Shown piece after piece: positions 1,083-64,000 of a stretch of DNA of 64,000 bases. Under the pieces are notes generated by a model. That model saw nothing but the letters and a program-made list of their open reading frames with translations, had not been told where the DNA came from and ran no database searches. The position numbers and the translations under genes were made by a program. Source of the DNA: a virus (Duplodnaviria > Heunggongvirae > Uroviricota > Caudoviricetes); IMG/VR virus record IMGVR_UViG_3300037067_005176, positions 125,081 to 189,080 of that record. One strand, given 5' to 3'. Numbering within the stretch: position 1 is the first letter of the stretch; each line of letters opens with the position of its first letter.

Positions 1083-1931
1083 ATGGCATATTTAGTTGCA
1101 ACAGCATGGATTAAAGATGAAGCACCATATTTAGCACAATGGATCGAATTTCATTTGCTTCAAGGGTTTGAGAAGTTTTACTTTTTCGATAATGGGTCCA
1201 CTGATGGAACTGCTGAAGTATTAGCTCCATACATAAAAGAAGGAATTGTTGAGTTCAATACATATCCTGCTGAAGTAACTCAACGCAAAAACTTTTGGGT
1301 TATTCGTCATTCATTAGACTCATTTAAGAATGTTCATAAATGGTTATTTCATCATTCAATTGATGAATATATGTTTTGTCCAAATGGCGAGAAAGTTTCA
1401 AACTTCTTGAAGCGATTTGAAAATAATGCAGGCGTATGTATCCCTTGGATGAATTTTAATTCTTCGGGAAAAGACATGATGGAAGATGGATTAGTGATTG
1501 AGAGATTTGATACTTGGGTTGATGATCCTAATAGACATATCAAGACTGTAGTTCAACCAGATAAAACATATGATTCGGTTGGAAACCCTCACTGTTTTAT
1601 TTATCTTAAGGATTATGCTGTATATGCAAATGGACAACAGCACAATGTAATGAAAATTCATGGTGGAGCAATGCATAACGATCCATATCTTTTAAATGAT
1701 ATTCGCATTCACCATTATTGCACAATGAGTCGTGAAGAATATGATACGAAAATGAATAAAGGTTTATTGGATATTTCTCAAGAGAAACAACGCAGAGCCG
1801 ATGCAGAAAATTTTTGGACTGCAATGCATCCAAATCAATCGCTTCAAAATAAAGATACATCACTATTTAAATATATCGAAATAGTCAAGGAAAATATGAG
1901 GAAACGATATGAGCAAGCTGGTGATATTTGA
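1083..1931 (+). CDS. Glycosyltransferase (GT-A fold, FDNGSTDGT motif)
   Basis: DNGSTDGT signature typical of family-2-like glycosyltransferases. Confidence 0.5.
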   Translation: MAYLVATAWIKDEAPYLAQWIEFHLLQGFEKFYFFDNGSTDGTAEVLAPYIKEGIVEFNTYPAEVTQRKNFWVIRHSLDSFKNVHKWLFHHSIDEYMFCPNGEKVSNFLKRFENNAGVCIPWMNFNSSGKDMMEDGLVIERFDTWVDDPNRHIKTVVQPDKTYDSVGNPHCFIYLKDYAVYANGQQHNVMKIHGGAMHNDPYLLNDIRIHHYCTMSREEYDTKMNKGLLDISQEKQRRADAENFWTAMHPNQSLQNKDTSLFKYIEIVKENMRKRYEQAGDI

Positions 1932-4858: not shown

Positions 4859-6013
4859 ATGAAATACATAAAACAAATTATTCTTATATTGTTGCTTTCT
4901 GTTGCAACAATAAATGCGGCGATATATAGTTCAAAATGTCCAGATTGGAGCAGCGCAATACCTTATGCTGTTGGTTCATGCGTATCAGATGAAGGAAATA
5001 ATTACATTGCACATGTACCAATTGGCGCATATCAAAGACCTATTTATGGAAATCAATGGGATGCTTGTTCACCTGGAGAATGTGAAGATCAATTTTTAAC
5101 TTGTGCAGATAATTCTTCTGTAGTTAATGATACTATTCACGTTGTTGAATATGACACTACGAATGTTGCTGTAAGTATATTTGATACTACACATTTCGCT
5201 GTGAACTTGTTTGATACAACACGAACTGCAGTTTCAATTTTTGATACGACACGATTTGCTGTAAGTTTATATGACACTACAAGATTTGCTGTTAGCATAT
5301 ATGATACGACTAAGTTCGTTATTAATAAATATGACACTGTAAATAATATCATTAATGTATATGATACTACAAGATTTGCTGTAAGTATTTTTGACACAAC
5401 TAGGTTTGCTGTTAATATGTACGATACAACAAACATATACGATACAAATTATGTAAGTATCACAGACACCGTTCGCGATACAACAAACATATACGATACA
5501 ACGCATCAGCAAGTTGTTATTTATGATATTACATATGAAGATGTTTATTCATATGATACTATCACATTAACTGATACATTGTTTTATTTAGATACTAATA
5601 AGTTCAGTATATTGGATAGTGTTTATATAAACAATAAAATGTTTACCGTTTCAACTATCGTTAAAGACGACTTAGAATCAGCTCCTATATTGGTCACATT
5701 AATTGACACCAACATATTTAATGTTGGTGTCGGAGATACTGTTACTTTTCATTTCGATCTTAATGTATATGATAATGCAGGACAATTTGTTAATAGAATT
5801 AAAGGTGTTGAAATATTATTTGATGGTTATGAGTTTCACGTTAGTAAAATACAGCTTATAAGTATTGATAGCGATGGGTATTTAATATCAAAAGCTGGAA
5901 AAAAACTTGGAAATGGCGTTTATATTTTAAAAGGTATTGGTTTAATAAAAGTAAATGGTAATAACCAAAAAACATACTTTTATAATAGTACTGAAGGATA
6001 TAGGAGAAAATAA
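4859..6013 (+). CDS. Secreted protein with N-terminal signal peptide and about 8 tandem 13-aa repeats (FDTTRFAVSIYDTT)
   Basis: Signal-peptide-like MKYIKQIILILLLSVATINAA. Tandem 39-bp coding repeats at about 5141-5445. Confidence 0.6.
   Translation: MKYIKQIILILLLSVATINAAIYSSKCPDWSSAIPYAVGSCVSDEGNNYIAHVPIGAYQRPIYGNQWDACSPGECEDQFLTCADNSSVVNDTIHVVEYDTTNVAVSIFDTTHFAVNLFDTTRTAVSIFDTTRFAVSLYDTTRFAVSIYDTTKFVINKYDTVNNIINVYDTTRFAVSIFDTTRFAVNMYDTTNIYDTNYVSITDTVRDTTNIYDTTHQQVVIYDITYEDVYSYDTITLTDTLFYLDTNKFSILDSVYINNKMFTVSTIVKDDLESAPILVTLIDTNIFNVGVGDTVTFHFDLNVYDNAGQFVNRIKGVEILFDGYEFHVSKIQLISIDSDGYLISKAGKKLGNGVYILKGIGLIKVNGNNQKTYFYNSTEGYRRK
5141..5445 (+). repeat. 39-bp tandem coding repeats (about 8 units) inside 4859..6013
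   Basis: Repeated tttgatacNacacgatttgctgtaagtata-type units giving the peptide repeats. Confidence 0.6.
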
Positions 6014-6540
6014 TGGGTATTCCTAATACATTTCAAAACGATTCGTGGTCGTTAATATTTTCTAATATTCCAAATGCTGATCCTAGTGAAGCGATTGATA
6101 ATAAATTATTTGACTTATATGTAAAAAGCTTTGCTTTACCAGATTTACAACTTGATACCGCAAACACGGATTTTAAAGAAGGATCAATTAGACAAGTAAT
6201 GTCAAGAGCAAATGATAATCTTCAACAATTATCTATTGAGTTTAAAGTTTCTGAAGATATGAGAAACTATTTTATCCTATATCAATACTTAATGGCAACA
6301 CGATATGGTAAGATTTTAGATAAACAACAATGGCTTAGAAACAATGTTATAAAAAACATTAAGCTTGTTTGTTTAGATAATCAAAGACGCGAAATTGGCG
6401 GCATGATTTTTACAAATGCGATTATAACAAGCGTTGGCTCTTTGAGTTTACAAATGGGTGTTGCGGACCAGGTAACATTTTCCGTCACATTCTTTTACGA
6501 AGAATCTAAACTTTACACTAAGGAAATATTTGGAACGTAA
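6013..6540 (+). CDS. Hypothetical protein
   Basis: 175-aa ORF, start overlaps previous stop (TAATG). RBS taggag. Confidence 0.5.
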   Translation: MGIPNTFQNDSWSLIFSNIPNADPSEAIDNKLFDLYVKSFALPDLQLDTANTDFKEGSIRQVMSRANDNLQQLSIEFKVSEDMRNYFILYQYLMATRYGKILDKQQWLRNNVIKNIKLVCLDNQRREIGGMIFTNAIITSVGSLSLQMGVADQVTFSVTFFYEESKLYTKEIFGT

Positions 6541-10884: not shown

Positions 10885-10887
10885 CGC

Positions 10888-10941
10888 ATGAATTACCAAA
10901 GAATACATGCGAAAAACGAAGTCAACTTGGTCGTAATATAA
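10888..10941 (+). pseudogene. Footprint of an HNH homing endonuclease 5' end (MNYQRIHAKNEV...*)
   Basis: atgaattaccaaagaatacatg matches the 5' ends of the HNH genes at 14152 and 30377 (atgaactaYcaaagaatatatgatgc). Confidence 0.4.
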
Positions 10942-13191: not shown

Positions 13192-13470
13192 ATGTCATTT
13201 AGTAATTATATAAAAGAAAAAACAGAAGATCATTCAAATAAGAACTTTGTTGCGATAAATATGGAACGTGAAGGTAAACCTGTTATGCTTACTTCAGGTA
13301 AAGAGTTGGAAAATACGACCGTTTTGTCTTGTACAAAAAATGCTTTAACTTATATTCATGTTGAGCACGATATTGCATCAATTGAACAAATAATTTTAAC
13401 ACCGCCAAGAGAAGTAACATTGCGCTTGGATGTTAATAAATTAAAAAATAATGTAAAACATATTAAATAA
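13192..13470 (+). CDS. Hypothetical protein
   Basis: 92-aa ORF with RBS taggag. Confidence 0.45.
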   Translation: MSFSNYIKEKTEDHSNKNFVAINMEREGKPVMLTSGKELENTTVLSCTKNALTYIHVEHDIASIEQIILTPPREVTLRLDVNKLKNNVKHIK

Positions 13471-13510
13471 TTTTTAAAATCTGGTTGACAAACAATCGGA
13501 TTTTTTATTT
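13471..13510 (+). terminator. Putative weak terminator hairpin with embedded TTGACA followed by T-run
   Basis: aaaatctggTTGACAaacaatcggatttttt. Imperfect stem, T7 run. Confidence 0.3.
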
Positions 13511-13622
13511 TTGTAGATGATCTGGACGCTCTAGATGAGTTGTAATATTCTTTATGTATCAATACTTACAGTAAAACAAACGAGATCTAAAAATGATCTA
13601 AATGAAAATAGGATAAACTATA

Positions 13623-14174
13623 ATGATAAAACTAAATCAAGACAAAAAACTGTTCTTTTTATCGGATGCTCATTTGATGCATGCGAATATCATCAAATAT
13701 TGCAATCGCCCATTCGCTGATGCACAGGAGATGACCGAAACAGTTATACGAAATTGGAATAAAGTTGTTACTGATGAAGATCAGATTGTGTTTTTGGGTG
13801 ACTTTATTTGTGGATGTAAAAATGCTAAAGAAACTTCAGAATACTTTTATGAGTGCCTGAATGGCGAAAAGCATTTCATCCGTGGCAACCATGATACCGA
13901 TGATAAGATGTCGGATAAGTTGAATTGGTATAAGAATGATGAGAACCTTTATAGAACTCACTACAAAGGTTATGATTTGGTATTAAGCCACTATCCTTTT
14001 GAGCGAAAACATTTTAAGCCGTTGGCTAATGCGATTTATATTAGTGGTCATACGCATGATACGGATTTGATTTATGATAAATATAATAAATGTGTAAATG
14101 TGTGTTGCGAAGCTGTAAATTATACACCCATTTTATTTGAAAATATTTTAAATGAACTATCAAAGAATATATGA
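13623..14174 (+). CDS. Metallophosphoesterase (calcineurin-like; DAH..GDF..GNHD..GHTH motifs)
   Basis: Ordered MPP motifs read from the translation. Confidence 0.6.
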   Translation: MIKLNQDKKLFFLSDAHLMHANIIKYCNRPFADAQEMTETVIRNWNKVVTDEDQIVFLGDFICGCKNAKETSEYFYECLNGEKHFIRGNHDTDDKMSDKLNWYKNDENLYRTHYKGYDLVLSHYPFERKHFKPLANAIYISGHTHDTDLIYDKYNKCVNVCCEAVNYTPILFENILNELSKNI

Positions 14175-14757
14175 TGCTATAATTGAACGCGCTAAACTAC
14201 GCGGGCTTAACAAGAAGCTTCTTGATGGCTATTTTGAACGTCACCACATCATTCCTAAATGTATGAATGGAACAAATAACAAAGATAATTTAGTTCTTTT
14301 AACAGCTCGTGAACATTATCTTTGTCATTGGCTACTTTGGAAAGCAAATAAAGAAAATTATAAGTTGTTTTATGCATATCATATTATGACAACCGTAAAA
14401 TCGTTTAAGTTATCGTCTAAACAATTTGAAATAATAAAATATGTTCAAAGAAATGTAATGAGCGTTTTAAAGAAAGGCAAAAAATTTAGTGCCACTCATA
14501 AAGAAAACATTAAAAGAAATCATTTCGATTGTTCAAATTGTAATAATTCATTTTTCGGAAAAATTCATTCAGAAGAATCGAGAGATAAAATAAAATTAGC
14601 GTGGGTTGAGAGAAGAAAAACACCGATGACAAAGGATGTTAAATTAAAACATTCCGAACAAAGTTTAGGACGAAAATGGTATCATAATAACAAAGGAAAT
14701 TGTATTTTTACAAAAGATGATGTTGATTGTAATACTTGGTATCCTGGTAGATCATGA
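14152..14757 (+). CDS. HNH homing endonuclease (ERHHIIPK...N...EH..CH)
   Basis: HNH motif. The 5' end overlaps the MPP gene stop. The same 5' sequence is reused at 30377 and 10888. Confidence 0.7.
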   Translation: MNYQRIYDAIIERAKLRGLNKKLLDGYFERHHIIPKCMNGTNNKDNLVLLTAREHYLCHWLLWKANKENYKLFYAYHIMTTVKSFKLSSKQFEIIKYVQRNVMSVLKKGKKFSATHKENIKRNHFDCSNCNNSFFGKIHSEESRDKIKLAWVERRKTPMTKDVKLKHSEQSLGRKWYHNNKGNCIFTKDDVDCNTWYPGRS

Positions 14758-14775
14758 CACAAAATTAATTTCAGA

Positions 14776-14859
14776 TATAAATAATCGTATAATAAACGTA
14801 TCATGTGAAGCGGCGAACTATACGCCGATTTCATTTGAAAAAATTTTGGAGGTGTTTAA
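14776..14859 (+). other. Relic duplicate of the 3' end of the MPP gene (encodes ..NVSCEAANYTPISFEKILEVFK*), left downstream of the HNH insertion
   Basis: Translates to a near-copy of the C-terminus of 13623..14174 (CVNVCCEAVNYTPILFENILNELSKNI) and carries the RBS ggaggtg of the next gene. Confidence 0.5.
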
Positions 14860-15180
14860 ATGAAATTTAAAGATTATGTAAAAGAAAGTCTTTTGCTTGA
14901 GAAGAAAATTACAATCGGCGGAAAGGAGTTCAATTCGGCTAAAGAAGCTGGACTTTATCTTGGATCAATCGGTAAAACTGCAAAAGAGATTATGAAGCTT
15001 ATTGATACAACCGAATCAATGGCCACCTATTATGCAAGAGTTGGATCAAAGATTAAAAGTTCTGCTCCAAAAACTGCTTCGCTTCCAGTTGTTGCGAAGA
15101 CTACAGGAACTTTAACCGGCACAAAAACAATTGCTCCTGGTGCACGGCTTGGGCAAAAACACAAGAATTTAAGTCGGTAA
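14860..15180 (+). CDS. Hypothetical protein, N-terminal-domain paralog of 47333..47830 (GGKEF..DTTE.MA)
   Basis: Strong similarity to 47333 over aa 1-70. RBS ggaggtg. Confidence 0.55.
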   Translation: MKFKDYVKESLLLEKKITIGGKEFNSAKEAGLYLGSIGKTAKEIMKLIDTTESMATYYARVGSKIKSSAPKTASLPVVAKTTGTLTGTKTIAPGARLGQKHKNLSR

Positions 15181-15257
15181 AAGATGTTTCTGATATTCTT
15201 GGACCTCGCGGAAAGTCAAGTGAAGAAGCCGTTATTGCATTCCTTAAAAAGAATAAG

Positions 15258-15491
15258 ATGAGTGATGATCTTATGGCAAATGTTATTGGTTATTACGGTA
15301 TTGATGGTGAAGATTATTTTGATGATAATGGAAATTGGAAAGATACATCAAAGAAAACTGAATCTAAGAAGACTGTACCCAATAAGAAATTCGCTGATAA
15401 GAAAACATTTTCAGAAGATAAACCGTTTATAAAGCATCGTCAGGATAAAAACTTCACACTTGTTGTAAAAAATAAAAAACAACGCCTTTAG
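15258..15491 (+). CDS. Hypothetical protein; possibly the frameshifted C-terminal part of the 14860 gene (frame open from 15057)
   Basis: Frame 0 is open 15057-15491 overlapping the 14860 ORF. GIDGEDYFDDNGN resembles YHDGTGDF..GDEYGN in the single-ORF paralog 47333. Confidence 0.35.
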   Translation: MSDDLMANVIGYYGIDGEDYFDDNGNWKDTSKKTESKKTVPNKKFADKKTFSEDKPFIKHRQDKNFTLVVKNKKQRL

Positions 15492-15747
15492 TATAAATGT
15501 TGGTCCAACTATTGGCGGAGATAAATGACGTACACATTATTCGGGCGAAGCCATTTCAGATAATAACGCTGGTATTATGAAAATTATAAATTCATATTTT
15601 CCAAACACTGTAAAGGAAATGAGTGGTGGCGGATTGTTTGGAAACATTTCCGATGAGAATCCTGATAAAGCTAAAATAGAAAAAATGTATAATGAACTTG
15701 ACACATATTTGGATGAATTGCGAAGCAAAGTAAAGAAATAAATTTGA

Positions 15748-15779
15748 AGACCGGTTGACAAAACAGCCGGTCTTTTTTA
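15748..15779 (+). terminator. Rho-independent terminator (gaccggTTGACAaaacagccggtc + TTTTTT), also containing a TTGACA -35-like hexamer
   Basis: GC stem plus T6. Confidence 0.6.
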
Positions 15780-15808
15780 TTTTTGTTTTTTACTTTGGAG
15801 ACAAAATA

Positions 15809-18988: not shown

Positions 18989-19547
18989 GAAATTCAAAAC
19001 ATTGTATGAATCGCTAAATAATATTGAAGCTTTACAAAAGGTGATTTACTCAGGGACGTCACCTGTCTATGTTGCTACTGCAGGTATACAAGGAAGCGGA
19101 AAATCAACATTTGCTAAAGAGAACTTCAAAACTATTGAAATACTTGATCTTGATGAAATCAATAAAGATATTTCAAATGGTGATATGGAAGCGTTTCAAA
19201 GAAATAGATCAAAAGCAATTTCAAAGAAGAATGAGATGCTTAGAGATTTGTTTAAGAAAAGAAAATCATTTATTGATGCAGGTACTGCAGCCAATACTCA
19301 ATCTCTGTTGAAGAAACTTACTTATGCAAAATCTTTAGGATACACAACTGCTGTAGTGTATGTGAATATTCCAATAGAAGTTGCAATTGAAAGAAACTTA
19401 AAACGAATTGAAAGCGGTTCTCATGGAGTTCCCATTGAACGTGTTCAAGAAATTATAAACCGTACAGATATGAATGTTAGACAAACTATTAAAGAAATAA
19501 AAGACAATGCTGATCTTGTTGATTTCTTTATTGAAAAAGGACTATAA
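18989..19547 (+). CDS. P-loop kinase (Walker A GIQGSGKST; AAA_33/polynucleotide-kinase-like)
   Basis: Walker A GxxGSGKST near the N-terminus. Starts MKFKTLYES. Real start likely ATG 18989, downstream of the ORF-track start. Confidence 0.5.
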
Positions 19548-19548
19548 A

Positions 19549-20454
19549 ATGACAATTCAATCAACCGCTCGTAAAGGTATTCCTCACCTTTGGTTCCCAG
19601 GCAATTCAATGGAAATGAAGCCTTTGGATTTTTTGGACTTTATCAAATTACTTAGGCGCAATGCTGGCGTTATAAGTTACAAGAATACAAGTCTTTCTGA
19701 AAAGATTGATGGCGCCGGAATTCGATTCGGATGTGATGTTGATAAAAGATTCTTTATCGAGTCTTCTCGCTCAGGTCCTATCTTTGTACCTAAAGCATTT
19801 TCTAAATTTGCTGAAAACAAATTCGGCTCAACCAACGCAACAGCAAATGGGTATGATGCGATATTCGACGAGTTGGATGCGGATAATGTTTTATACTTTA
19901 TACTCAATAAGTATAACAAAAATGGTATAAAGGTTATAGGCGAAGTTCTTTTAAACCAATTTGGAGTTAAACATGATACTGAACAGAATCTTGTTAAATT
20001 TGTCAATACTTGGTATGATAGTACCAAGTTGGGGTCGTTTGCAACTTTTGTGTTATTTACCGTTCAAGATTCTGAAGGCAATACGCATAGAAGTTCAGAT
20101 GAAATTATAAGCCTACTAAAAGCAATATCAAATGACCGTATAAAATTTGAGACTGCTGAGATCAATGAATTTGAACCTTTAGATTTCTCAAAGCATATTG
20201 AGGGATTTGCAAAGGTTATGAAAACTGCATTTGATAATGACATAGATAACTTTATCTTGAAAAAGAAGAAGGATGCTGATGTTATTCTTTACATAAACAC
20301 TCTCCAAAAAATTCTCAATGCCCATTTATCTGCTTTAATCAATAAAGGAAAGTTTGGGCCAAACTATGAAGGACTTGTATTTGAATTTGATAATAAAATC
20401 AAGTTTAAGATTACAACGGAAACATTTAAAGATGCTAAAAGAAAATCCAAATAA
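19549..20454 (+). CDS. Ligase-like nucleotidyltransferase (motif I KIDGAG, motif IV EGLVFEF, motif V KIKFKI); candidate RNA ligase
   Basis: KxDG lysine-adenylation motif plus EGxV and KxK motifs in the correct order. Lies immediately downstream of the P-loop kinase. Confidence 0.4.
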   Translation: MTIQSTARKGIPHLWFPGNSMEMKPLDFLDFIKLLRRNAGVISYKNTSLSEKIDGAGIRFGCDVDKRFFIESSRSGPIFVPKAFSKFAENKFGSTNATANGYDAIFDELDADNVLYFILNKYNKNGIKVIGEVLLNQFGVKHDTEQNLVKFVNTWYDSTKLGSFATFVLFTVQDSEGNTHRSSDEIISLLKAISNDRIKFETAEINEFEPLDFSKHIEGFAKVMKTAFDNDIDNFILKKKKDADVILYINTLQKILNAHLSALINKGKFGPNYEGLVFEFDNKIKFKITTETFKDAKRKSK

Positions 20455-23614: not shown

Positions 23615-23925
23615 TTCACAACATCGATGGAATTGAACAAGCTTTAAGACTTCATCGTGGATACAAATATTTTAAACGCAAATCAATTCACCGACTTGTT
23701 GCAAAGGCATATTGTGAAGAGTGGTTTGATGGTTGTGAGATTCACCACTTGGATCATAACAAGCTTAACAATGACATTTCTAACTTAGTATGTATTTCCA
23801 AATCAGAACATAAAAAATTCCATGCCAACGACATCCAAACGACGATAAAAGAAGTTGGTAAGTCAAGACGCAAGAAGAAAACTCAGAAGCATTGTTTCAA
23901 CAAGAAGTTCGTTATAAACAAATAA
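23596..23925 (+). pseudogene. HNH endonuclease C-terminal fragment (..HRLVAKAY..GCEIHHLDHNKLNNDISNL..SEHKKFHA)
   Basis: Open frame without start codon, beginning where the TnpB frame ends. HNH_3-type motif. Confidence 0.5.
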
Positions 23926-23930
23926 CAAAA

Positions 23931-23963
23931 AAGAGGAATCGTTTTGATTCCTCTTTTCGTTTT
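23931..23963 (+). terminator. Rho-independent terminator (gaggaatcGTTTTgattcctc + TTTTCGTTTT)
   Basis: 8-bp stem plus T-rich tail. Confidence 0.65.
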
Positions 23964-24083
23964 GACGATTGTAAGTTTTCTTTTTGTCTTTACGAATCCT
24001 AGTCATTAAGGTTCGTCCGTTGTTTGACTCACTTATACGATCTTGTCGTAAATAGTGATCAAGATTTTTCTTTTGGTCCTGGA

Positions 24084-24480
24084 TCATATATTTTTCCTTT
24101 TATAGATTCTTCCTAATACCCACCCTAAATTAACATAACTATCAACATCATTTTTATTTATAAATTTTGATGCCTTGTTATTTGTTATCCAAACTTTATT
24201 ACATTGAACTTTTGAAATATTATTTCGCCATTCGCTTGTCAATTTACGTCCTGTCATCGATGCTTTTGACACTTGTGATATAATCTTTTTAGTTTCTTCT
24301 GTATGGTTAAGATGTATTGCTCCATGCCCACCAATACACATGTTATATGTATCGTTTTGATTTATAAAAGCTTTTGTGATTATTGAGTGTTCTCTATTAA
24401 AAGCTTTGCATTTTCAATCAAACCATTCCAAAATCTCTTTCTTGAAATTTTCTTTACGATACTTCTTTATTGATTGTTTA
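24084..24480 (-). pseudogene. GIY-YIG endonuclease pseudogene (copy of 6540..7358 with in-frame stop: ..KENFKKEILEWFD*KCKAFNREHS..)
   Basis: Minus-strand translation aligns with 6540..7358 (KENFKKEILEWFDWRCEALNREAE) but has a stop and lacks the N-terminal domain. NUMOD3-like C-terminus at 24084..24341. Confidence 0.5.
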
Positions 24481-29242: not shown

Positions 29243-29395
29243 ATGAAATGCGGAAAATGTAATATTGGTAAACTTAAATATAATGAGAAAGGTATTTATT
29301 TTTGGTATACTTGTAATAATTGTGATTATGAAACACGCAAAGAAGTAAATACAATAAATAAAAGACTTATAAAAGAGAAAACTTATGGGACGTAA
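29243..29395 (+). CDS. Small zinc-ribbon protein (50 aa; CGKC...CNNCDYE)
   Basis: RBS aaaggag 5 nt upstream. Below the ORF-track cutoff. Same architecture as the - strand zinc-ribbon family. Confidence 0.4.
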   Translation: MKCGKCNIGKLKYNEKGIYFWYTCNNCDYETRKEVNTINKRLIKEKTYGT

Positions 29396-30380
29396 ACTTG
29401 CATCAATTCAGCGCATTTGGAAAATTGAACCAATTGAAGGAGCTGACAGAATTGAATTAGTTCGTGTAATGGGCTGGCAGTGTATAGCAAAGAAAGAAGA
29501 GTTCGAAAAGTATGATCTATGTGTATACATCGAAATTGACTCTGTATGCCCAAAAGAAGATGAACGATTTGCTATGCTTGCTTCAACCAATTGGAAGGTT
29601 AAAACAAGAAAGATGAAAAATACTCTCTCGCAAGGTATTGCATTACCACTTTCTTTATTCGGCTGGACTGATGCTGATGTTACACTTGAAGAGGATGTTT
29701 CTGAAAAGCTAGGTATTAAACTTTTTGAAAATTATGAAACATTTAATGCAGTCGAAGCAAAAGGTGGATTTCCAGGATTCATTCGTAAGACTGACCAAGA
29801 AAGATCAGCCAATTTAAGTCAAAAAACTTATGAAAATTATAGCAAAATGAAATTTGAAGTTACTGAAAAATGCGAAGGATCTAGTTCCACTTGGTTTTTA
29901 CGCGATAATGAATTCTTTGCATGTTCTCGCAATCTTGTGATGAGACTTATTGACGGTTCTCGTTGGAAATATTTAAACTACAAATACAATCTTGAAAATA
30001 AGTTAAAAACTTATGGAAAGAATATTGCTATTCAAGCGGAAATATTAGGGCCAGGAATACAGAAAAATTATTATGGTTTAAGTTCTTATGAGATTAAAAT
30101 ATTTGATGTGTTTGATATTGATGCACAAAGATATTTAAATCCTGATGAAAGATATAAAGTTCTTGAAGAGCTAGGTCTTATGCATATTCATGTTCCAATT
30201 GTGCATAAAGAATTTTCGTTTGAAGGAATAACTCATGATGAGTTGATGAAATTAGCCAACGGAAAATCTATGATTTCTTCAAACAAGATTCGTGAAGGTT
30301 TGGTTTATAAGTGCATATCAAATGGAGATTATCACTTTAAAACCGTTGATCCAATTTACTTGCTCAAAGAAGATCAATGA
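29385..30380 (+). CDS. RNA-ligase-family nucleotidyltransferase-like protein (variant motif I EKCEGSS, motif IV EGLVYK, motif V FKTVD) with N-terminal extra domain
   Basis: EGxVxK motif IV and K-x-[DE]-G motif I in appropriate order and spacing. Confidence 0.4.
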   Translation: MGRKLASIQRIWKIEPIEGADRIELVRVMGWQCIAKKEEFEKYDLCVYIEIDSVCPKEDERFAMLASTNWKVKTRKMKNTLSQGIALPLSLFGWTDADVTLEEDVSEKLGIKLFENYETFNAVEAKGGFPGFIRKTDQERSANLSQKTYENYSKMKFEVTEKCEGSSSTWFLRDNEFFACSRNLVMRLIDGSRWKYLNYKYNLENKLKTYGKNIAIQAEILGPGIQKNYYGLSSYEIKIFDVFDIDAQRYLNPDERYKVLEELGLMHIHVPIVHKEFSFEGITHDELMKLANGKSMISSNKIREGLVYKCISNGDYHFKTVDPIYLLKEDQ

Positions 30381-30637
30381 ACTACCAAAGAATATATGAT
30401 GCAATAAAAAGAACTTCTATTGCTAATAAAGGCCGTAAAAATACAATTGAATCGAATAAGCGAATAAGCGACTCTATAATTGGAAAGCACAAAGGCTTAA
30501 AAAATCCAAACTTTGGAAAGTATAATACGGATTCACCAAACTATGGAAGAAGATGGTTTCATAATAAAATCGGTGAACGCGTATACAAAAATCCGGATGA
30601 AGTTGATCATAACATTTGGATTTTTGGTATGAAATGA
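30377..30637 (+). pseudogene. Internally deleted HNH endonuclease relic (MNYQRIYDAI... lacks the HNH catalytic motif)
   Basis: N- and C-termini match 14152..14757 but the middle (ERHHIIPK...EHYLCH) is absent. Confidence 0.45.
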
Positions 30638-32852: not shown

Positions 32853-32874
32853 TATTTAAAACAAAGGAATGATT

Positions 32875-33996
32875 ATGAATAAGAAATACAAATTAACTAA
32901 AGAGACTATAGTCATTAGTTCATCAACTTTATATAGAATAAAGGCTCTAATTGACATTCCTTCTTCTAATGTTAAAAAAGGTGATCCGGGTGGATTCATT
33001 GAAAATGAATCCAATCTAAGTCATGAAGGTTCTTGCTGGGTCGCTGATAATGCAAGAGTCTTTGGTGATGCATGGGTCTTTGGTGATGCATGGGTCTTTG
33101 GTTCTGCAAGAGTTTATGGTAATGCAGGTGTCTTTGGTAATGCATTGGTCTTTGGTAATGCATTGGTCTTTGGTAATGCAAAGGTCTTTGGTTCTGCAAA
33201 GGTCTCTGATAATGCAAGAGTCTATGATAATGCATGGGTCTATGGTAATGCAAGAGTTTATGGTTCTGCATGGGTCTCTGGTAATGCAAAGGTCTTTGGT
33301 AATACATGGGTCTATGATAATGCAAGAGTTTATGGTAATACAAATGTCTATGATAATGCAAAGGCCTATGGTGATGCATCGGTCTATGGTGATGCAAAGG
33401 TCTATGGTGATGCATTGGTCTATGATAATGTAAAGGTCGCTGATAATGCAAGAGTCTTTGGTGATGCATGGGTCTTTGGTGATGCATGGGTCTTTGGTTC
33501 TGCAAAGGTCTCTGATTCTGCAAGAGTTTATGGTTCTGCAAGAGTCTCTGGTGATGCAAGAGTCTATGGTTCTGCAAAGGTCGCTGGCAATGCAAATGTC
33601 TTTAGTAATGCAAAGGTCGCTGATAATGCATGGGTCTATGGTAATGCAAGAGTCTCTGATAATGCAAGAGTCTTTGGTAATGCAAAGGTCTATGATAATG
33701 CATTGGTCTATGATAATGCAATAGTCTCTGGTTCTGCAAAGGTATATGGTGATGCAAAGGTCTATGATACTGCAAGAATCTATGATAATGCATTGGTCTT
33801 TGGTAATACATGGGTCTATGGTAATGCATTGGTCTCTGATAATGCACCTGCGGTAGCGAAGTATTATATTGATGGTGAACAGGTTTTATTTGAAGTATTT
33901 AAAGAGCGGACTAAAGAACCTGAAAATGAAGTTGTTATGACCATAAAAGAAATTGAACAAAAACTTGGAATACCTAATTTAAAAATTACACGGTAA
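32875..33996 (+). CDS. Hexapeptide-repeat (left-handed beta-helix-like) protein, family copy 1: conserved 55-aa N-module plus about 45 tandem x-V-[FYS]-[GD]-[NDS]-A repeats
   Basis: Protein periodicity of 6 aa, DNA periodicity of 18 bp. N-terminus MNKKYKLTKET..TLYRIKAL..KKGD.GGFIENESNLSHEG.CWV shared with 43431 and 47016. Confidence 0.65.
   Translation: MNKKYKLTKETIVISSSTLYRIKALIDIPSSNVKKGDPGGFIENESNLSHEGSCWVADNARVFGDAWVFGDAWVFGSARVYGNAGVFGNALVFGNALVFGNAKVFGSAKVSDNARVYDNAWVYGNARVYGSAWVSGNAKVFGNTWVYDNARVYGNTNVYDNAKAYGDASVYGDAKVYGDALVYDNVKVADNARVFGDAWVFGDAWVFGSAKVSDSARVYGSARVSGDARVYGSAKVAGNANVFSNAKVADNAWVYGNARVSDNARVFGNAKVYDNALVYDNAIVSGSAKVYGDAKVYDTARIYDNALVFGNTWVYGNALVSDNAPAVAKYYIDGEQVLFEVFKERTKEPENEVVMTIKEIEQKLGIPNLKITR
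33041..33850 (+). repeat. 18-bp tandem coding repeat array (hexapeptide repeats)
   Basis: Units of the form ggtaatgcaaaggtcttt repeated about 45 times with variation. Confidence 0.7.
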
Positions 33997-43430: not shown

Positions 43431-44162
43431 ATGAAAAAGAAATATGAATTAACCAAAGAGACCATTATTGTTGGTTCATCAACTCTATATAAAATCAAAG
43501 CTCTGATTGACATTCCTTCTAAAGATATTAAAAAAGGTGATCTAGGTGGATTCATTGAAAATGAATCCAATCTAAGTCATGAAAATACTTGCTGGGTCTA
43601 TGATAATGCATTGGTCTCTGGTTCTGCAAGAGTCTCTGGTAATGCAGGTGTCTCTGGTGATGCATCGGTCTCTGGTAATGCAAAGGTCTATGGTGATGCA
43701 TGGGTCTCTGGTAATGCAGAGGTCTTTGGTAATGCAAAGGTCTTTGGTAATGCAAAGGTCTATGGTGATGCAAAGGTCTATGATGATGCAAGAGTTTATG
43801 GTAATGCAGAGGTCTTTGGTTATGCAAATGTCTTTGGTAATGCAAATGTCTTTGGTAATGCATGGGTCTTTGGTAATGTATGGGTCTCTGATTCTGCAAG
43901 AGTCTCTGGTGATGCAGTTGTCTTTGATTCTGTAAAGGTCTATGGTAATGCAAAGGTCTATGGTAATGCAAAGGTCTATGGTAATGCAAGAGTTTATGGT
44001 TCTGCAAGAGTCTCTGGTAATACAAATGTCTATGGTGATGCAGGTGTCTTTGGTAATGCATTGGTCTATGGTAATGCAAAGGTCTTTGGTAATGCAAAGG
44101 TCTTTGGTAATGCAAAGGTCTATGATAAATTCACATTAACTGATGATGAAATTTTATGCTGA
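43431..44162 (+). CDS. Hexapeptide-repeat protein, family copy 2 (about 30 repeats; C-terminus ..YDKFTLTDDEILC)
   Basis: Same N-module and repeat type as 32875..33996. Confidence 0.65.
   Translation: MKKKYELTKETIIVGSSTLYKIKALIDIPSKDIKKGDLGGFIENESNLSHENTCWVYDNALVSGSARVSGNAGVSGDASVSGNAKVYGDAWVSGNAEVFGNAKVFGNAKVYGDAKVYDDARVYGNAEVFGYANVFGNANVFGNAWVFGNVWVSDSARVSGDAVVFDSVKVYGNAKVYGNAKVYGNARVYGSARVSGNTNVYGDAGVFGNALVYGNAKVFGNAKVFGNAKVYDKFTLTDDEILC
43600..44130 (+). repeat. 18-bp tandem coding repeat array
   Basis: ggtaatgcaaaggtctat-type units. Confidence 0.7.
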
Positions 44163-45500: not shown

Positions 45501-45962
45501 ATGGCTGGATGTTTTGGCGGATCTGACATTGATCGTTGGATGAAACAAAATCTTGATCGTTATCTTGATGAAGGAAAATCAGGAAATCGTGAATTGCTTC
45601 TCAAGCTGTTCAAAGGAAAGAAGTTAATCAAAGAGTTTTGGAAAGATGTTTCAAATGAAGACGATTGTTATCATGTGATGAAAGAAGCACTTATTGAAAT
45701 TCACACTCGTCAGTTGAAGAAATATCTTTACGAGATGACTTCTGGGCCAACTTTGTTTCACACTCCTTATAAAGGTGCTCACACTTTTTATAACCCCGAA
45801 ACTTGCTGCAGTTATTATTGGTCAATTGACAAATATGCTCAACAAAAGATTCTTGAGAAGTGGGCAATGTTACCAAAGACTTTTCACATTAAGAATAAAG
45901 AATTCAACTTGTTACGAATGGGTAAGTACTCAATCGTATGCTCAGACATATATGAACAATAA
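45501..45962 (+). CDS. Hypothetical protein (153 aa)
   Basis: ORF with RBS aaggatt. Confidence 0.45.
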   Translation: MAGCFGGSDIDRWMKQNLDRYLDEGKSGNRELLLKLFKGKKLIKEFWKDVSNEDDCYHVMKEALIEIHTRQLKKYLYEMTSGPTLFHTPYKGAHTFYNPETCCSYYWSIDKYAQQKILEKWAMLPKTFHIKNKEFNLLRMGKYSIVCSDIYEQ

Positions 45963-45984
45963 ACCAAAAAGGAAGAGACACAAA

Positions 45985-47019
45985 ATGAATGAAAAAAAAG
46001 AAAAGACATATTGTGTTTATGTTGGACGCTTTCAGCCTTGCCACTTGGCACATGTGAAGACAATTCAAAATGCTTTAGCGATCGCTGATGAAGTTTGTAT
46101 TATCATCGGCTCTTATCGCCAAACTCCTACGGTGAAAAACCCATGGACGTTTGATATGCGAGAGAAGATGATTCGCGCTTGCTTCAGCATTCAAGACAAT
46201 GAACGAATCAAAGTGGCTCCTATGCGAGACTATCTTTACAACGATAATACTTGGATCACTTCCATGTATGACATCATTGCAAAGATGACAAACAATTCCG
46301 AGAATGTTCAAATCATTGGACATAAAAAGGATAAGTCCACCGAGTATCTTGAATTCTTTCCATCCTGGACTTGGGTCCCTCAACCAAATTTCGACAACAT
46401 CAATGCAACAGACATCCGCATGGATTTGTTTACTCACTGTATGGTGAAAGAAACATCCGGCACTGTGCATCCTGAAGTTGTAAAACTTATTCACAATTGG
46501 AAAGCAGGCAACGAGCTCTTTACGAATCTTGTTGCTGAATTTGAATTTGTGAAGAAGTATCGTGAATCTTGGAAGGTTGCACCATATCCTCCAACATTTG
46601 TTACATCTGATGCAGTATGTGTCAAGTCTGGGCATGTGTTGGTAATCAAGAGAGGTATGAATCCTGGTAAAGGGCTCTTTGCTCTCCCAGGTGGATTTGT
46701 AAATCAAAATGAAGATGTTCGTACAGCATCTATCCGCGAGCTTCGAGAAGAGACTGGAAAATGGATGAGCGTTGATGATCTTGATGAAAAGATTGTTGCA
46801 GAACATGTCTTTGATCATCCTAAACGCGATCCTCGTGGTCGTTGCATTACACATGCGTTTTTGTTCAAGCTTAATGATAAAGGACCTCTTCCTTTAGTTA
46901 AGGCTGACGATGATGCAAGCGATGCAATTTGGATGCCGTTCTCTGATGTGATTGCAAGTGAAGAAAGCTTCTATGCTGATCATGCGCATATAATTTGTTA
47001 TTTTGTTAATAAGCTATGA
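45985..47019 (+). CDS. Bifunctional NMN adenylyltransferase / Nudix hydrolase (NadM-Nudix, NatV-like)
   Basis: N-terminal GRFQPCHLAH (HxGH-type NMNAT motif) and C-terminal Nudix box SIRELREETGKW. RBS aaaggaagag upstream of ATG 45985; the ORF-track start 45775 overlaps the upstream gene. Confidence 0.65.
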   Translation: MNEKKEKTYCVYVGRFQPCHLAHVKTIQNALAIADEVCIIIGSYRQTPTVKNPWTFDMREKMIRACFSIQDNERIKVAPMRDYLYNDNTWITSMYDIIAKMTNNSENVQIIGHKKDKSTEYLEFFPSWTWVPQPNFDNINATDIRMDLFTHCMVKETSGTVHPEVVKLIHNWKAGNELFTNLVAEFEFVKKYRESWKVAPYPPTFVTSDAVCVKSGHVLVIKRGMNPGKGLFALPGGFVNQNEDVRTASIRELREETGKWMSVDDLDEKIVAEHVFDHPKRDPRGRCITHAFLFKLNDKGPLPLVKADDDASDAIWMPFSDVIASEESFYADHAHIICYFVNKL

Positions 47020-50599: not shown

Positions 50600-51760
50600 A
50601 TGATTGAATTACAAGGTAAGTATAATACCGCAAAGGTATTTACTGATAATTTGGATGAAGGAAGTACTTCACAAATTATAAAGATGATGAATCATCAAGT
50701 TTTTAAAGATTCGTCTGTTCGTATAATGCCCGATTGCCATTTAGGAAAGGGTTCGGTAATTGGATTTACTGCATCGCTAACAGACAAAGTAATTCCTAAT
50801 GTGATTGGCGTTGATATTGGCTGTTCCATTAGTATTGGAAAAATTGAATCCAAAAAACCATGGACATTTGAAACTCTTGATAAGATTATTCGCGGTCACA
50901 TTCCATTTGGAACTAATACGCATTCAAGCCAAGTAAAAATCTTAAAGAATTCAAATTCAAAGCTTGGGGTGATTTTTAATTCAATTGAAAGCGACGTTGA
51001 AAAAATTTCAAAGAAGATCGGTATTGATGTTGATCGCATAAAGTGTTCAATTGGGTCTCTTGGTTCTGGTAACCACTTTATTGAAATTGATACAAACTCC
51101 AATGATGAAAAATATTTAGCATTACATTCAGGTTCAAGAAACTTTGGATTGCAGGTTGCGAATTATCATCAAAAGAAAGCAATCAATTTTATTGAAAAAT
51201 CCCAAGGAACACTTGACGGTTCAGCAAAAGAACTTGCATGGCTTGAAGGAACTGATGCTGAAGAATATTACAAAGATATGAAGACTGCGCAAATTTATGC
51301 GTCGTTGAATCGTTTAACGATGCAGCATATTATATGTTCCGAAATGAATTGGAATATTGATGAAAGTAATTACATTGAAAGCATTCATAATTATATTGAT
51401 TTTGATGCAAAGATGATTAGAAAAGGCGCAATCTCTGCGCAGAAAGATGAAATGGTTGTTGTTCCAATTTCAATGGGCGATGGAATTATTATCGGACGAG
51501 GTCTTGGAAACAAAGACTGGAATTTCAGTTGTGCGCATGGAGCAGGAAGAATTTATTCAAGATCAAAAGCGAAAGAACTTTTATCAATGGATGAGTTTAA
51601 GCAGCGTATGAATGGAATTTGGTCTTCATGTATTTCAACTTCCACATTGGATGAAAGTCCTATGTCATATAAGTCTTTGGATTATATTGTTGAATATGTA
51701 AAGCCGACCATCGAAGTTGTTGAAATCATTAAACCTGTGTACAACTTTAAGGCTAATTGA
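50600..51760 (+). CDS. rtcB: RtcB-family RNA ligase (3'-phosphate/5'-hydroxyl)
   Basis: MPDCHLGKGSVIG, GVDIGC, GSGNHFIEI, AHGAGR motifs. Confidence 0.7.
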   Translation: MIELQGKYNTAKVFTDNLDEGSTSQIIKMMNHQVFKDSSVRIMPDCHLGKGSVIGFTASLTDKVIPNVIGVDIGCSISIGKIESKKPWTFETLDKIIRGHIPFGTNTHSSQVKILKNSNSKLGVIFNSIESDVEKISKKIGIDVDRIKCSIGSLGSGNHFIEIDTNSNDEKYLALHSGSRNFGLQVANYHQKKAINFIEKSQGTLDGSAKELAWLEGTDAEEYYKDMKTAQIYASLNRLTMQHIICSEMNWNIDESNYIESIHNYIDFDAKMIRKGAISAQKDEMVVVPISMGDGIIIGRGLGNKDWNFSCAHGAGRIYSRSKAKELLSMDEFKQRMNGIWSSCISTSTLDESPMSYKSLDYIVEYVKPTIEVVEIIKPVYNFKAN

Positions 51761-61273: not shown

Positions 61274-61600
61274 TTATACAATCAGGATTTTAATGTCTTT
61301 AATACTTTCTAAAAATACATCAACTTTATTTGATTCAATACAAATACTTTCATTGATATACCCTTTCTTGTTCAATCTTACAATGTCATTTTTCATCATT
61401 ATATACGCACCTGTTAGATACGCATAATCAAATATCTTGGTCAACAAATAATGAGCCATACAGTGCTCAGAATATGTTAAAAGCATTATGTTTGATTCAA
61501 CATCCTTACCTCCAATACAACGAGGTATTATATGATGAATTTCAAGATAACCTCTATGCTTGCATTTGCTAATACCTCTATATTGAGCCTTTGAAATCAA
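61274..61600 (-). CDS. HNH endonuclease domain protein (LEIHHIIPRCIGG...N...EH..AH), probably a fragment (TTG start, no RBS)
   Basis: HNH motif. Short (108 aa). Confidence 0.5.
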   Translation of the reverse strand: MISKAQYRGISKCKHRGYLEIHHIIPRCIGGKDVESNIMLLTYSEHCMAHYLLTKIFDYAYLTGAYIMMKNDIVRLNKKGYINESICIESNKVDVFLESIKDIKILIV

Positions 61601-62198
61601 TTGACAATAAGCATCAATATAGGAGCTTGTAATAGTCGGTTCGATATAGAACGAGGCTTCCTACGCTTGACAATTGATGCAGGCCTTAGCTTCCTATATT
61701 CCTGCAACGTAACACATCGTAAATTGCTTGGAATATTGTTGAAATAATTTCCACCAATATGAACGATATAACAGCCCTTAAACCAACCGTCAATTGAGCG
61801 TTGAGTTTAGCGATCGCAAAATGATCTTGCTTAGGTCGTCCTGATTTATAAAAATTCATAAAACAAATATAACAAAAATTTATCAATAATACAGCAGGCA
61901 TATACAAAAATTTTATCAGCGATCATACTCCTAGCGATCACTAAAAATATCTCACTGACACCAGCACCATATACATGAAAGGAACCAGCGAACTCACTAA
62001 GGAACTATCAGTAAATGGATAGGTGTGTTAAGCCGTGTTAAGTCTCTTACTTTTTTCTGGTGCACCATGGCCACCATGGTGATGGTGCCAATAACTAATA
62101 TGCAAGTGTGTGTGTCGTTCTAGAAGGTTCTTGGTAATTGTTGTATCTCATTTTTTCCATGGAGCGTTTTCTATAATCTCTGACCATTCAAAAAATTT

Positions 62199-63115: not shown

Positions 63116-63556
63116 TTACCAACAATCTCTATAATACATTGTTTTTGATTTACCAAAGAACTCAGCATTCCCTTTTATAGTTTCAAGAGCAGGTCCTTTT
63201 GGTAACTTCTCCCCTTTGATTTTGACATTTCCACAGTCTGTAGAAGCATCACCAGTGAGATCTCCATTGATTGTAATATTTCCACAATCGTTAGTAACAT
63301 TTCCGTATACTGAAGCGTTTATTGTGATGTTACCACTGTCTACAGCTACTAATTCGACATGTTCAGCGTTCACAATCACTTCAGTAACACAAAATTTTGT
63401 ATCTTTATTAAGTGTCAACTCAACGTCATCAACAAAGATCTTTCCATTGCAAATTGATATGTTACTGGAAGTAACATAAATCGACTTATCATTACCTAAT
63501 AGTCGATTTATGAATTTCTTAATATGTTTAACAACTTCAGCATAAAATTTCATCAT
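63116..63556 (-). CDS. Bactofilin-like beta-helical repeat protein (GNITINASVYGNVTNDCGNITINGDLTGDA), translationally coupled to the hexapeptide-repeat gene
   Basis: Starts MMKFYAE overlapping the hexapeptide gene stop exactly as at 44143. Repetitive G-N-[IV]-T-I-N segments. Confidence 0.4.
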   Translation of the reverse strand: MMKFYAEVVKHIKKFINRLLGNDKSIYVTSSNISICNGKIFVDDVELTLNKDTKFCVTEVIVNAEHVELVAVDSGNITINASVYGNVTNDCGNITINGDLTGDASTDCGNVKIKGEKLPKGPALETIKGNAEFFGKSKTMYYRDCW

Positions 63557-64000
63557 CAGTTAATGTAAATTTATCAATCTTTGCAGAACCATAGACTCTT
63601 GCAGAACCATAAACTCTTGCATTACCATAGACCCATGCATTATCATAGATTCTTGCAGTATCATAGACCTTTGCATCACCATATACATTTGCAGAACCAG
63701 AGACTATTGCATTACCAGAGACCTTTGCATCACCATAGACCTTTGCATTATCATAGACCTCTGCATTATCATAGACCGATGCATTGCCAAAGATCCTTGC
63801 ATTACCAGAGACCCATGCATTACCATAGACCCATGTATTATCATAGACTCTTGCATTATCAGAGACCGATGCATCACCAAAGATCCATACAGAACCAGAG
63901 ACCTCTGCATTATCATAAACTCTTGCATAATCAAAGACCTTTGCATCACCAAAGATCCATACAGAACCAGAGACCTCTGCATTATCATAGACCAATGCAT
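63537..64000 (-). CDS. Hexapeptide-repeat protein, family copy 3 (inverted orientation; 3' part only, gene continues beyond window end)
   Basis: C-terminus ..KIDKFTLTDDEILC identical in type to copy 2. 18-bp repeats. Confidence 0.6.
   Translation of the reverse strand, partial: ALVYDNAEVSGSVWIFGDAKVFDYARVYDNAEVSGSVWIFGDASVSDNARVYDNTWVYGNAWVSGNARIFGNASVYDNAEVYDNAKVYGDAKVSGNAIVSGSANVYGDAKVYDTARIYDNAWVYGNARVYGSARVYGSAKIDKFTLTDDEILC
63600..64000 (-). repeat. 18-bp tandem coding repeat array (inverted relative to arrays at 33.0-33.9 kb and 43.6-44.1 kb)
   Basis: accatagacYYttgcattacc-type units. Confidence 0.7.

Follow-up and report, generated by a model that had tools for sequence, protein, structure and literature searches.

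A putative HNH homing endonuclease gene between a chimeric metallophosphoesterase gene and its displaced 3' end in a distant T4-like phage

We analysed a stretch of 64,000 nucleotides (nt) from a phage of the Caudoviricetes (IMG/VR record IMGVR_UViG_3300037067_005176, positions 125,081 to 189,080), hereafter the window. Within it, a metallophosphoesterase (MPE) gene runs into a homing endonuclease gene (HEG) of the HNH type, and the HEG is followed immediately by a second version of the MPE 3' end, which we call the relic. Comparison with related metagenomic loci indicates that the tail the MPE gene now carries is foreign and that the relic is native. Megablast of 13192..15500 against GenBank phages gave no match, and protein-mode matches to GenBank phages were all below 40% identity, with no close cultured relative. 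Contigs of the relatives encode RegA, gp23 and gp25 domains, on the basis of which the source appears to be a distant T4-like phage.

The metallophosphoesterase and endonuclease genes

The main features are listed below, with coordinates in the window, sizes in nt or amino acids (aa), and related metagenomic loci and proteins given by handle (L004, P0008 and so on).

13623..14174, + strand: MPE gene, chimeric, 183 aa (Pfam Metallophos/Metallophos_2; phrog_547, E=5e-42)
13623..14042, + strand: 5' part of the MPE gene, native, spanning codons 1-140, closest relative L004/P0002
14043..14151, + strand: foreign MPE 3' segment next to the HEG, nearest protein P0008
14152..14757, + strand: Mob-type HNH homing endonuclease gene, intact and freestanding, 201 aa (phrog_655, NUMOD3)
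14753..14863, + strand: relic of the native MPE 3' end, 36 codons plus stop in an open frame, assigned by orthologue identity
14848..14852, + strand: GGAGG ribosome-binding site of the gene at 14860, inside the relic; GGAG(G) followed by ATGA also in L004, L007 and L008
14860..15180, + strand: downstream gene (MKFKDYVKE..GGKEF..), natural 3' neighbour of the MPE gene in relatives without the HEG

The MPE and HNH coordinates, the 23-nt overlap between the two genes, the GGAGG and the junction with the next gene, all reported in an initial annotation of the window, were borne out by the map of open reading frames (ORFs) and by the sequence. Aligned with its homologues, the MPE keeps all family-invariant residues. 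The HNH ORF has its own ATG and overlaps the MPE end in another frame, its first 23 nt encoding the MPE tail NELSKNI and its stop codon. By analogy with T4 mobE and nrdA, the HEG is probably co-transcribed with the MPE gene.

The HNH protein matches phrog_655 ('homing endonuclease') over residues 1-183 (E=9e-47). Its NUMOD3 score lies above the Pfam cut-off (22.0 vs 20.4 bits) and its HNH score just under threshold (19.1 vs 21.4 bits). In tblastn it matches mobD/homing-endonuclease genes of T4-like phages of Klebsiella, Escherichia, Aeromonas and Serratia at 33-40% identity, with at least 87% of its length aligned. The catalytic motif (His...Asn...His) is present as ERHHIIPKCMNGTNNKDNLVLLTAREHYLCH, and HH..N..H..H is kept in the family alignment, with H31, H32, N46, H55 and H59 invariant or nearly so in 12 family members. 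When 11 metagenomic homologues are aligned, the N-terminal ~65 residues prove strongly conserved (MNYQRIYDxIIxRAKxRGLNKKLLDGYFExHHIIPKC..N..LVLLT..EH...H) and the C-terminal DNA-binding part highly variable. The ORF stops at the family-typical position, directly after W.PG[RM]x, and is therefore complete. An AlphaFold2 model of the protein has a mean pLDDT of 68, with low confidence in core residues 27-50; Foldseek with this low-confidence model returned nothing from the PDB at E<1, and searching the PDB by sequence turned up HNH proteins at marginal significance only (IscB and pyocin AP41, E 0.3-0.4). The gene appears to be a new member of the Mob-like HNH family.

No Rfam family matched in the window at gathering thresholds, and none that was relevant matched at E≤1 in 13300..15400. 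With neither a group I intron nor another Rfam family in the region, the HNH gene is freestanding. A reading of the locus as a group I intron or intein was rejected on the same grounds, and because the HNH ORF starts at an ATG of its own, in a frame other than that of the MPE. RNA folding around the HNH start is unremarkable (z=-1.45).

Two metallophosphoesterase 3' ends and their relatives

The relic begins at 14753 (CAT GAC ACA, encoding HDT), and reads HDTKLISDINNRIINVSCEAANYTPISFEKILEVFK up to its stop; its first 5 nt (CATGA) coincide with the end of the HNH ORF, stop codon included. In the third frame after the HNH stop it encodes ..NVSCEAANYTPISFEKILEVFK and ends with TGA at 14861..14863, which the ATG of the next gene, at 14860, overlaps. 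The initial annotation had recognised a diverged duplicate of the MPE C-terminus here and was right to do so; its start, given as 14776, lies ~23 nt earlier. In register with 14058..14153 the relic is identical at 64 of 96 nt, whereas the best score elsewhere on either strand of the window is 50/96 (mean 27.5, standard deviation 4.4), and the nucleotide similarity that the initial annotation expected is thus far above chance. The two copies differ at 32 nt, of which 19 are third codon positions, and 11 codons carry synonymous differences. The relic has not decayed: its frame is open and all 7 invariant residues are present. It may have been kept at least partly because its last ~15 nt form the translation-initiation region of gene 14860. 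Smith-Waterman comparison of every ORF tail and head with its flanks, across the window, returned the MPE as the only real duplication; the other high-scoring candidates were rejected as out-of-frame translations of hexapeptide-repeat genes. As a side observation, two substitutions confined to the relic, GTG->GCG (giving an odd EAANY) and CCA->CCG, form at 14811..14827 a perfect CGGCG-N7-CGCCG hairpin followed by ATTTCATTT, which a scan flagged as terminator-like and which may be chance.

A protein search gave eleven MPE relatives (48-78% identity), and DNA was compared for eight loci. The uninterrupted target is seen in L004, L007 and L008, which lack the HEG: the MPE stop overlaps the start of a gene-14860 homologue (MxFKDY..GGKEF.., starting at 4199, 5543 and 644, respectively), with GGAG(G) inside the last MPE codons. 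The junction of relic and gene 14860 in the window has the same arrangement. In L005, L006 and L009, a hairpin/TTGACA module and a CTP-transferase-like gene lie directly 3' of the MPE gene. In L001, L002 and L003 (protein P0009), the MPE ends in ..FDEILNELSKDL and a stop; the DNA there, ATGAATTATCAAAAGATTTATGATTCTGTT, corresponds to HNH codons 1-10 (MNYQKIYDSV) and is followed immediately by the hairpin region. These first 30 nt of a deleted HEG are retained because they now encode the MPE tail and its stop codon. P0008, known at the protein level, resembles L001-L003, with the next gene 70 nt downstream; the MPE ends of L001-L003 (..NELSKDL and stop) and of P0008 (..NELSKNSK) correspond to HNH codons 1-10, with the hairpin and the CTP-transferase-like gene coming next.

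Related genomes are therefore polymorphic for the element: the HEG is intact in the window, reduced to a 5' footprint in L001-L003 and P0008, and absent from L004-L009. Its left junction (..IL, then N-ATG..) is identical in the window and in L001-L003, and the MPE tails upstream of it differ, being P0008-like in the window and native-like in L001. The canonical home of the HEG appears to be the extreme 3' end of the MPE gene, where its ATG would stand in the +1 frame and its first 23 nt would encode the last MPE residues and stop codon. The eight loci thus support the proposal of the initial annotation that a freestanding HNH homing endonuclease gene sits at the 3' end of the MPE gene and has displaced the original end, which is retained. 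Insertion at the gene's 3' end describes the home of the HEG well; the effective insertion point in the window appears to be MPE codon ~141-147.

Wider searches yielded no further instance. IMG/VR scans for close relatives, with the MPE and with gene 14860, returned nothing, and a degenerate pattern of MPE end plus HNH start was absent from IMG/VR and found in JGI metagenomes only in the known L003 contig. Neither the 7 close relatives nor 50 distant IMG/VR MPE loci have a relic-like duplicate, and the distant loci have no adjacent HNH gene. One candidate, L058 (3001..3580; IMG/VR 3300045988_163855), in which a frameshift splits the MPE into ORFs of 79 and 83 aa, has no HEG and is either a pseudogene or a sequencing error. 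Separately, the native MPE end of L009 at 1860..1885 (..ILNKLK and stop, AATAAATTAAAATAA) resembles the HEG-derived end at 14140..14174 of the window (..ILNELSKNI and stop, AATGAACTATCAAAG); the likeness may be fortuitous, the DNA being AT-rich, or may reflect the context of the HEG's original left junction.

The two parts of the MPE gene have different nearest relatives. Codons 1-147 are 82% identical in aa to L004/P0002 (78.6% in nt over MPE nt 1-420, against L004) and 63% to P0008, whereas the current tail matches P0008 at 27/36 aa (75%) and L004 at 21/35; in nt, the segment 14043..14151 is 65.7% identical to L004, and the current tail matches all relatives at 59-65 of 96 positions. P0008 is thus nearest for the ~37 codons beside the HEG, and L004 for the rest of the gene. 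The left edge of the foreign segment is uncertain within 14040..14063. Sliding-window identity to L004 runs at 30-40/45 and falls to 22-26/45 from MPE nt ~420 on; splicing the relic in after codon 147 brings it back to 31-40/45. After HDT, identity to L004 is 83.9% with the relic and 67.8% with the current tail. Identity to L004 differs between the N-part and the tail of the MPE (Fisher p=0.006), and the relic differs from the current tail in identity to L007 (p=0.001) and to L004 (p=0.009). The relic matches orthologue 3' ends at 81 (L007), 78 (L004) and 78 (L008) of 96 nt, and at 28/33 (85%, P0010), 27/33 (82%, L007) and 25/33 (76%, L004) aa. Joining 13623..14063 to 14762..14863 reconstructs a normal 180-aa MPE without the HEG.

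Two copies of one gene segment 700 nt apart in a metagenome-derived contig could suggest a tandem duplication in situ with later divergence, or an assembly chimera of HEG-carrying and HEG-less strains. We regard both as very improbable. The relic is nearer to orthologues (78-81/96) than to the local copy (64/96), and the differences between the copies are mostly synonymous, which points to coding constraint on both in separate lineages; a foreign current tail together with a native relic excludes duplication in situ. The initial annotation had treated the relic as a duplicate of the present MPE end, and that similarity stands, but the present end appears to be a foreign, P0008-like tail that arrived with the HEG and not a local copy. 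As for a chimera, the longest exact match between relic and current tail is 9 nt, far below assembler k-mer sizes, and a separate Logan assembly (L013, run SRR18595300) is 100% identical over 5606 nt, all junctions included. For these two reasons an assembly artefact is unlikely.

Routes to the present arrangement

The explanation we favour, and consider fairly probable, is homing with co-conversion of the donor's MPE tail and an illegitimate join on the right side, at CATGA. A donor phage with the HEG would have passed a copy to a relative without it, after the endonuclease nicked or cut the recipient's MPE gene near the region coding for GHTH(D/S)T, at codons ~141-147, which lie ~100 nt upstream of where the HEG itself resides. 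Invasion of the donor by the left end, through homology, would then have copied the MPE tail and the HEG from it as a single co-conversion tract, the ~37 foreign MPE codons being flanking host sequence that came along. In terms of MPE codons, the foreign tract (from 14043-14063) and the relic (from 14753) have a common left limit at codons ~141-147, which encode the conserved GHTH motif. The donor's downstream DNA would have differed: as in L001 and P0008, the hairpin and the CTP-transferase-like gene would have come directly after MPE and HEG, without the recipient's small genes 3' of the MPE. Because donor-type genomes lack those genes, the right side could not have been resolved by homology. 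It may instead have been joined illegitimately at the CATGA microhomology shared by the HEG stop (..AGATCATGA) and the MPE codons CAT GAY, leaving the recipient's 3' end as a duplicate. We infer the cleavage site, the structure of the donor and the mode of joining from comparison of sequences. Since the same left junction bears a different, native-like tail in L001-L003, the tail would be a variable co-conversion tract and not a fixed part of the element.

Several points weigh against this account. An intact donor was not found, and besides the window's own HNH protein there is none more than 60% identical in a collection of 5.8 billion proteins; the donor's structure is accordingly drawn from deletion derivatives. 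A microhomology of 5 nt is weak evidence taken alone. A join exactly at the HEG stop, without any donor intergenic DNA, is somewhat coincidental for a random illegitimate event and would fit a pre-formed cassette equally well. Both the endonuclease activity and the cleavage position of the HNH protein are predicted. The tests for mosaicism draw on few positions (33-36 residues or 96 nt), and the MPE tails of other relatives are mosaic too, P0010 being 63% identical in the N-part and 85% in the tail.

The mosaic tails of several relatives, the highly recombinogenic and mosaic nature of T4-like phages (PMC2993671), and an HNH activity that is predicted from sequence with a Pfam score slightly below threshold would all suit another explanation. 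Ordinary recombination between co-infecting phages, illegitimate or at short homology, could have carried the HNH gene as a possibly inactive passenger. We think this improbable: the HEG ORF is intact and has conserved catalytic residues, the presence/absence polymorphism falls exactly at the site, with footprints in two lineages, and the breakpoint lies within the best-conserved stretch of the gene, which codes for a motif (GHTH), as is typical of homing targets.

Homing as proposed here has precedents in T4. Its freestanding endonucleases undergo intronless homing in which the cut falls in a neighbouring gene, some distance from the HEG (PMC2790892; PMC3984707), and MobE, which is promoterless, nicks its neighbouring gene and drives gene conversion (PMC2790892). 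The window locus resembles those of T4 MobA-E (MobE at nrdA/nrdB) and SegF/SegG in its HNH plus NUMOD3 protein with 33-40% identity to mobD/homing-endonuclease genes, in a HEG that abuts a conserved metabolic gene and has no apparent promoter of its own, in presence/absence polymorphism among relatives, and in a co-converted flank that would imply cleavage in the neighbouring gene away from the HEG. It differs in that the recipient's gene end is kept as a duplicate 3' of the HEG and was not replaced; the right side would therefore not have been resolved by homologous recombination. It differs also in the start of the HEG, which lies inside the last 23 nt of the host gene and supplies its stop codon, and in the target, an MPE gene and not nrd, gene 32 or gene 56.

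For the right-hand join, Parker, Belisle and Belfort (Genetics 153:1513, 1999) reportedly observed one-sided, illegitimate mending of double-strand breaks during T4 td intron homing, with microhomology junctions. The likeness lies in one-sided homology, a second junction at an ectopic microhomology, and gain of the element with rearranged or duplicated flanks. The td case comes from an assay engineered in the laboratory, in which the enzyme was of the GIY-YIG type and encoded by the intron, whereas the window would hold a natural product of a freestanding HNH gene. To our knowledge, one-sided acquisition through microhomology has been shown in T4 only in engineered crosses, and the window may offer a natural example.

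A Mob-type HEG inside a phage metabolic gene is also found in Aeromonas phage Aeh1, where insertion of mobE splits nrdA into two polypeptides that reassemble (PMC3045599). There, as here, the host gene functions through insertion-associated sequence. Unlike Aeh1 nrdA, the MPE of the window remains undivided: its tail has been substituted and the old one discarded.

The closest analogues of the locus appear to be the endonuclease ORFs of fungal mitochondria (mORFs) that form gene hybrids with C-terminal duplications, in atp6 of Allomyces macrogynus and in atp6, atp9, cox2 and nad3 of Glomus (PMC3630166). In both, the host core is followed by an in-frame foreign C-terminus, the endonuclease ORF and the displaced native C*-terminus; relatives resemble the native copy much more than the inserted one (91-98% vs 64-81% nt in Glomus, 81-84% vs 63-68% in the window); and a horizontal origin of the inserted tail is deduced. 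The window differs in its enzyme (HNH, not LAGLIDADG or GIY-YIG), in its setting in a phage genome and not an organelle, and in an endonuclease ORF that overlaps out of frame instead of being fused in phase. The tail beside the HEG varies by lineage (L001 vs window), which argues for a co-converted flank, and tail and endonuclease were not found to recur as one moving element, the window being a single instance in a small sampling.

The fungal hybrids suggest a further explanation, which we consider unlikely though not negligible: a self-propagating cassette of a surrogate MPE C-terminus plus the HNH gene, inserted in the MPE gene at codon ~145. The endonuclease would recognise native sequence spanning the insertion point, the surrogate tail would keep the MPE functional and immune to cleavage, and the displaced native tail would serve as the right homology arm, each homing event remaking a native-looking relic. 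The match to the architecture of the Allomyces and Glomus hybrids (PMC3630166) fits this idea, as do the coincident left limits of the foreign tract and the relic, the lack of any extra DNA between HEG stop and relic, and a relic that is undecayed, open in frame and complete in its 7 invariant residues. Divergence of the surrogate tail from native alleles is greatest at DINNRIIN/DKYNKCVN, as expected of an immunity polymorphism. The arrangement is, however, a single instance, with none in the 7 close or 50 distant MPE loci (a weak negative, given the small sampling); the same HEG left junction bears a different, native-like MPE tail in L001-L003; and an endonuclease that needed nothing but the native stretch as its target would also cleave the relic in the genome that carries it. 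Such a cassette would be a composite mobile element, a phage counterpart of the fungal mORFs that enters a gene interior without an intron or intein, and thus a third strategy by which phage HEGs target DNA of conserved catalytic motifs, beside splicing elements and intergenic residence. We hold that outcome, too, to be unlikely.

In the literature searched, whose coverage was incomplete and is not proof of absence, we did not find the arrangement described for a natural phage. It is known from fungal mitochondria and can be produced experimentally in T4, and it is not a new kind of system; the locus is a well-preserved but fairly ordinary record of HEG spread. Under homing with co-conversion, the donor-derived co-conversion tract, the HEG and the broken end of the recipient would survive at one locus as the three products of one round of homing. 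Phages, like fungal mitochondria, would then give rise to duplicated gene tails around endonuclease ORFs. The same explanation yields a testable prediction, that the HNH enzyme cleaves near the GHTH-coding codons 141-147 of HEG-less MPE alleles. Short 5' footprints of HEGs can persist as stop-codon-bearing ends of upstream genes. Annotators may also take two cautions from the locus: a host gene of this kind may have a tail of foreign origin, and what looks like a small ORF behind a HEG may be the displaced end of a gene.

Other endonuclease genes, remnants and neighbouring features

Two further HEG-related sequences share the start of the HNH gene.

30377..30637, + strand: internally deleted HNH pseudo-HEG, 86 aa, aligning to both ends of P0180/P0187 (226 aa)
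10885..10936, + strand: footprint of a third HEG, 52 nt, an insertion relative to L004, L001 and L005

The 18-mer ATGAAYTAYCAAAGAATA occurs at 10888, 14152 and 30377, three times where 0.08 are expected, a count reached in no shuffle. It encodes the N-terminus MNYQRIY(DxII), which is conserved family-wide in many unrelated contigs. The pseudo-HEG at 30377 keeps the first 10 and last ~75 residues of P0180/P0187, the latter being the DNA-binding tail, and has lost the catalytic core; it follows an RNA ligase gene with a 4-nt ATGA overlap, as P0180/P0187 do in relatives, and appears to be an internally deleted orthologue of a different HEG, one of the RNA ligase site. In the footprint, the first 21 nt of the HEG (MNYQRIH) remain together with a short 3' piece that closes with TAA; it lies exactly between the stop of an NT5C-like gene and TATAAATAAT. 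That 30377 is internally deleted and 10888 a footprint, as initially annotated, is confirmed by the alignment with P0180/P0187 and by the comparison with L004, L001 and L005.

The initial annotation had also read the recurrence as repeated homing or a cassette-like 5' junction. The 18-mer is indeed present at all three sites, but one HEG homing three times was rejected, given that the 18-mer is family-wide, 30377 is orthologous to P0180/P0187 and 10888 lies at a third site. The three sites record independent insertions of paralogous HEGs, at three stages of a cycle of invasion and decay. The recurring 18-mer reflects the family-wide N-terminus, and selection on the overlapped end of the upstream gene may also help to preserve the HEG start.

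Relatives of the RNA ligase at 29385..30380 (P0260/P0283 and P0262/P0265) are split into ~230-aa halves with the Pfam domain Intein_splicing, so the gene would have been hit by an intein in other phages and by an HNH HEG here. The gene contexts of the HNH paralogues P0122 and P0155, from the same 189-kb genome, are uninformative on relics. On the - strand at 61274..61630 lies a Mob-like HNH ORF (..YRGISKCKHRGYLEIHHIIPRCIGGKD..SNIMLLTYSEH..), 43% identical to the 14152 HNH protein over 63 aa; lacking both an ATG at the conserved N-terminus and a DNA-binding tail, it probably represents a HEG in decay. At 50600..51760 (+ strand), an RtcB-like RNA ligase gene is followed by a NUMOD3-like motif (51830..) and then by an ORF that ends by 52363 and has a Vsr/PD-(D/E)xK-like C-terminus (..YVPDCICFGNTIIEYYGDCWHAN..); the ORF, at 51.8-52.4 kb, may be another endonuclease-type mobile gene beside an RNA-repair gene. 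Weak matches to another HNH-type motif (CEIHHLDHNKLNNDISNLVCISKSEH) and to a W..NN..GW..GR tail motif, at 23686..23990 (+ strand) and 24108..24305 (- strand), suggest further HEG-like sequences.

Hairpins flank the unit formed by the MPE gene, the HEG and the small genes.

13476..13504, + strand: terminator-like hairpin with TTGACA in the loop, upstream of the MPE gene; start of the HEG-carrying transcription unit
15746..15775, + strand: second copy of the hairpin/TTGACA module, at the end of the unit; directly 3' of the MPE gene in L001, L005 and L009

In both copies the hairpin with its TTGACA loop is followed by TTTTTTATTTTTG (13476..13514 and 15746..15785), and the module also occurs in L001 (~5560-5600), L004 (~5265-5300), L005 (~5345-5375) and L007 (~6225-6260). 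It is conserved upstream of the CTP-transferase-like gene in relatives and looks like a combined terminator and promoter. A TTGACA-hairpin pattern at fixed spacing showed no enrichment.

The gene 3' of the MPE is highly variable, with 350 aa in L004 (4199..5251), 218 aa in L007 and 207 aa in L008 (644..1267). Its counterpart in the window consists of three small ORFs (14860..15180, 15258..15491 and 15577..15741), the second of which matches an internal stretch of the L008 protein (..VIGHYGIDGEEYFDDNGNWKD..), and 14860..15741 may be a fragmented gene. Elsewhere, a gene with hexapeptide repeats (NARVFGDAWVFGDAWVFGSARVYG...) lies at 32869..33996, with similar ones near 19507..20454, 43431..44162, 45775..47019 and 63537..64000; they are probably a paralogous family of beta-helix proteins, and their out-of-frame translations dominate self-similarity scans of the window.

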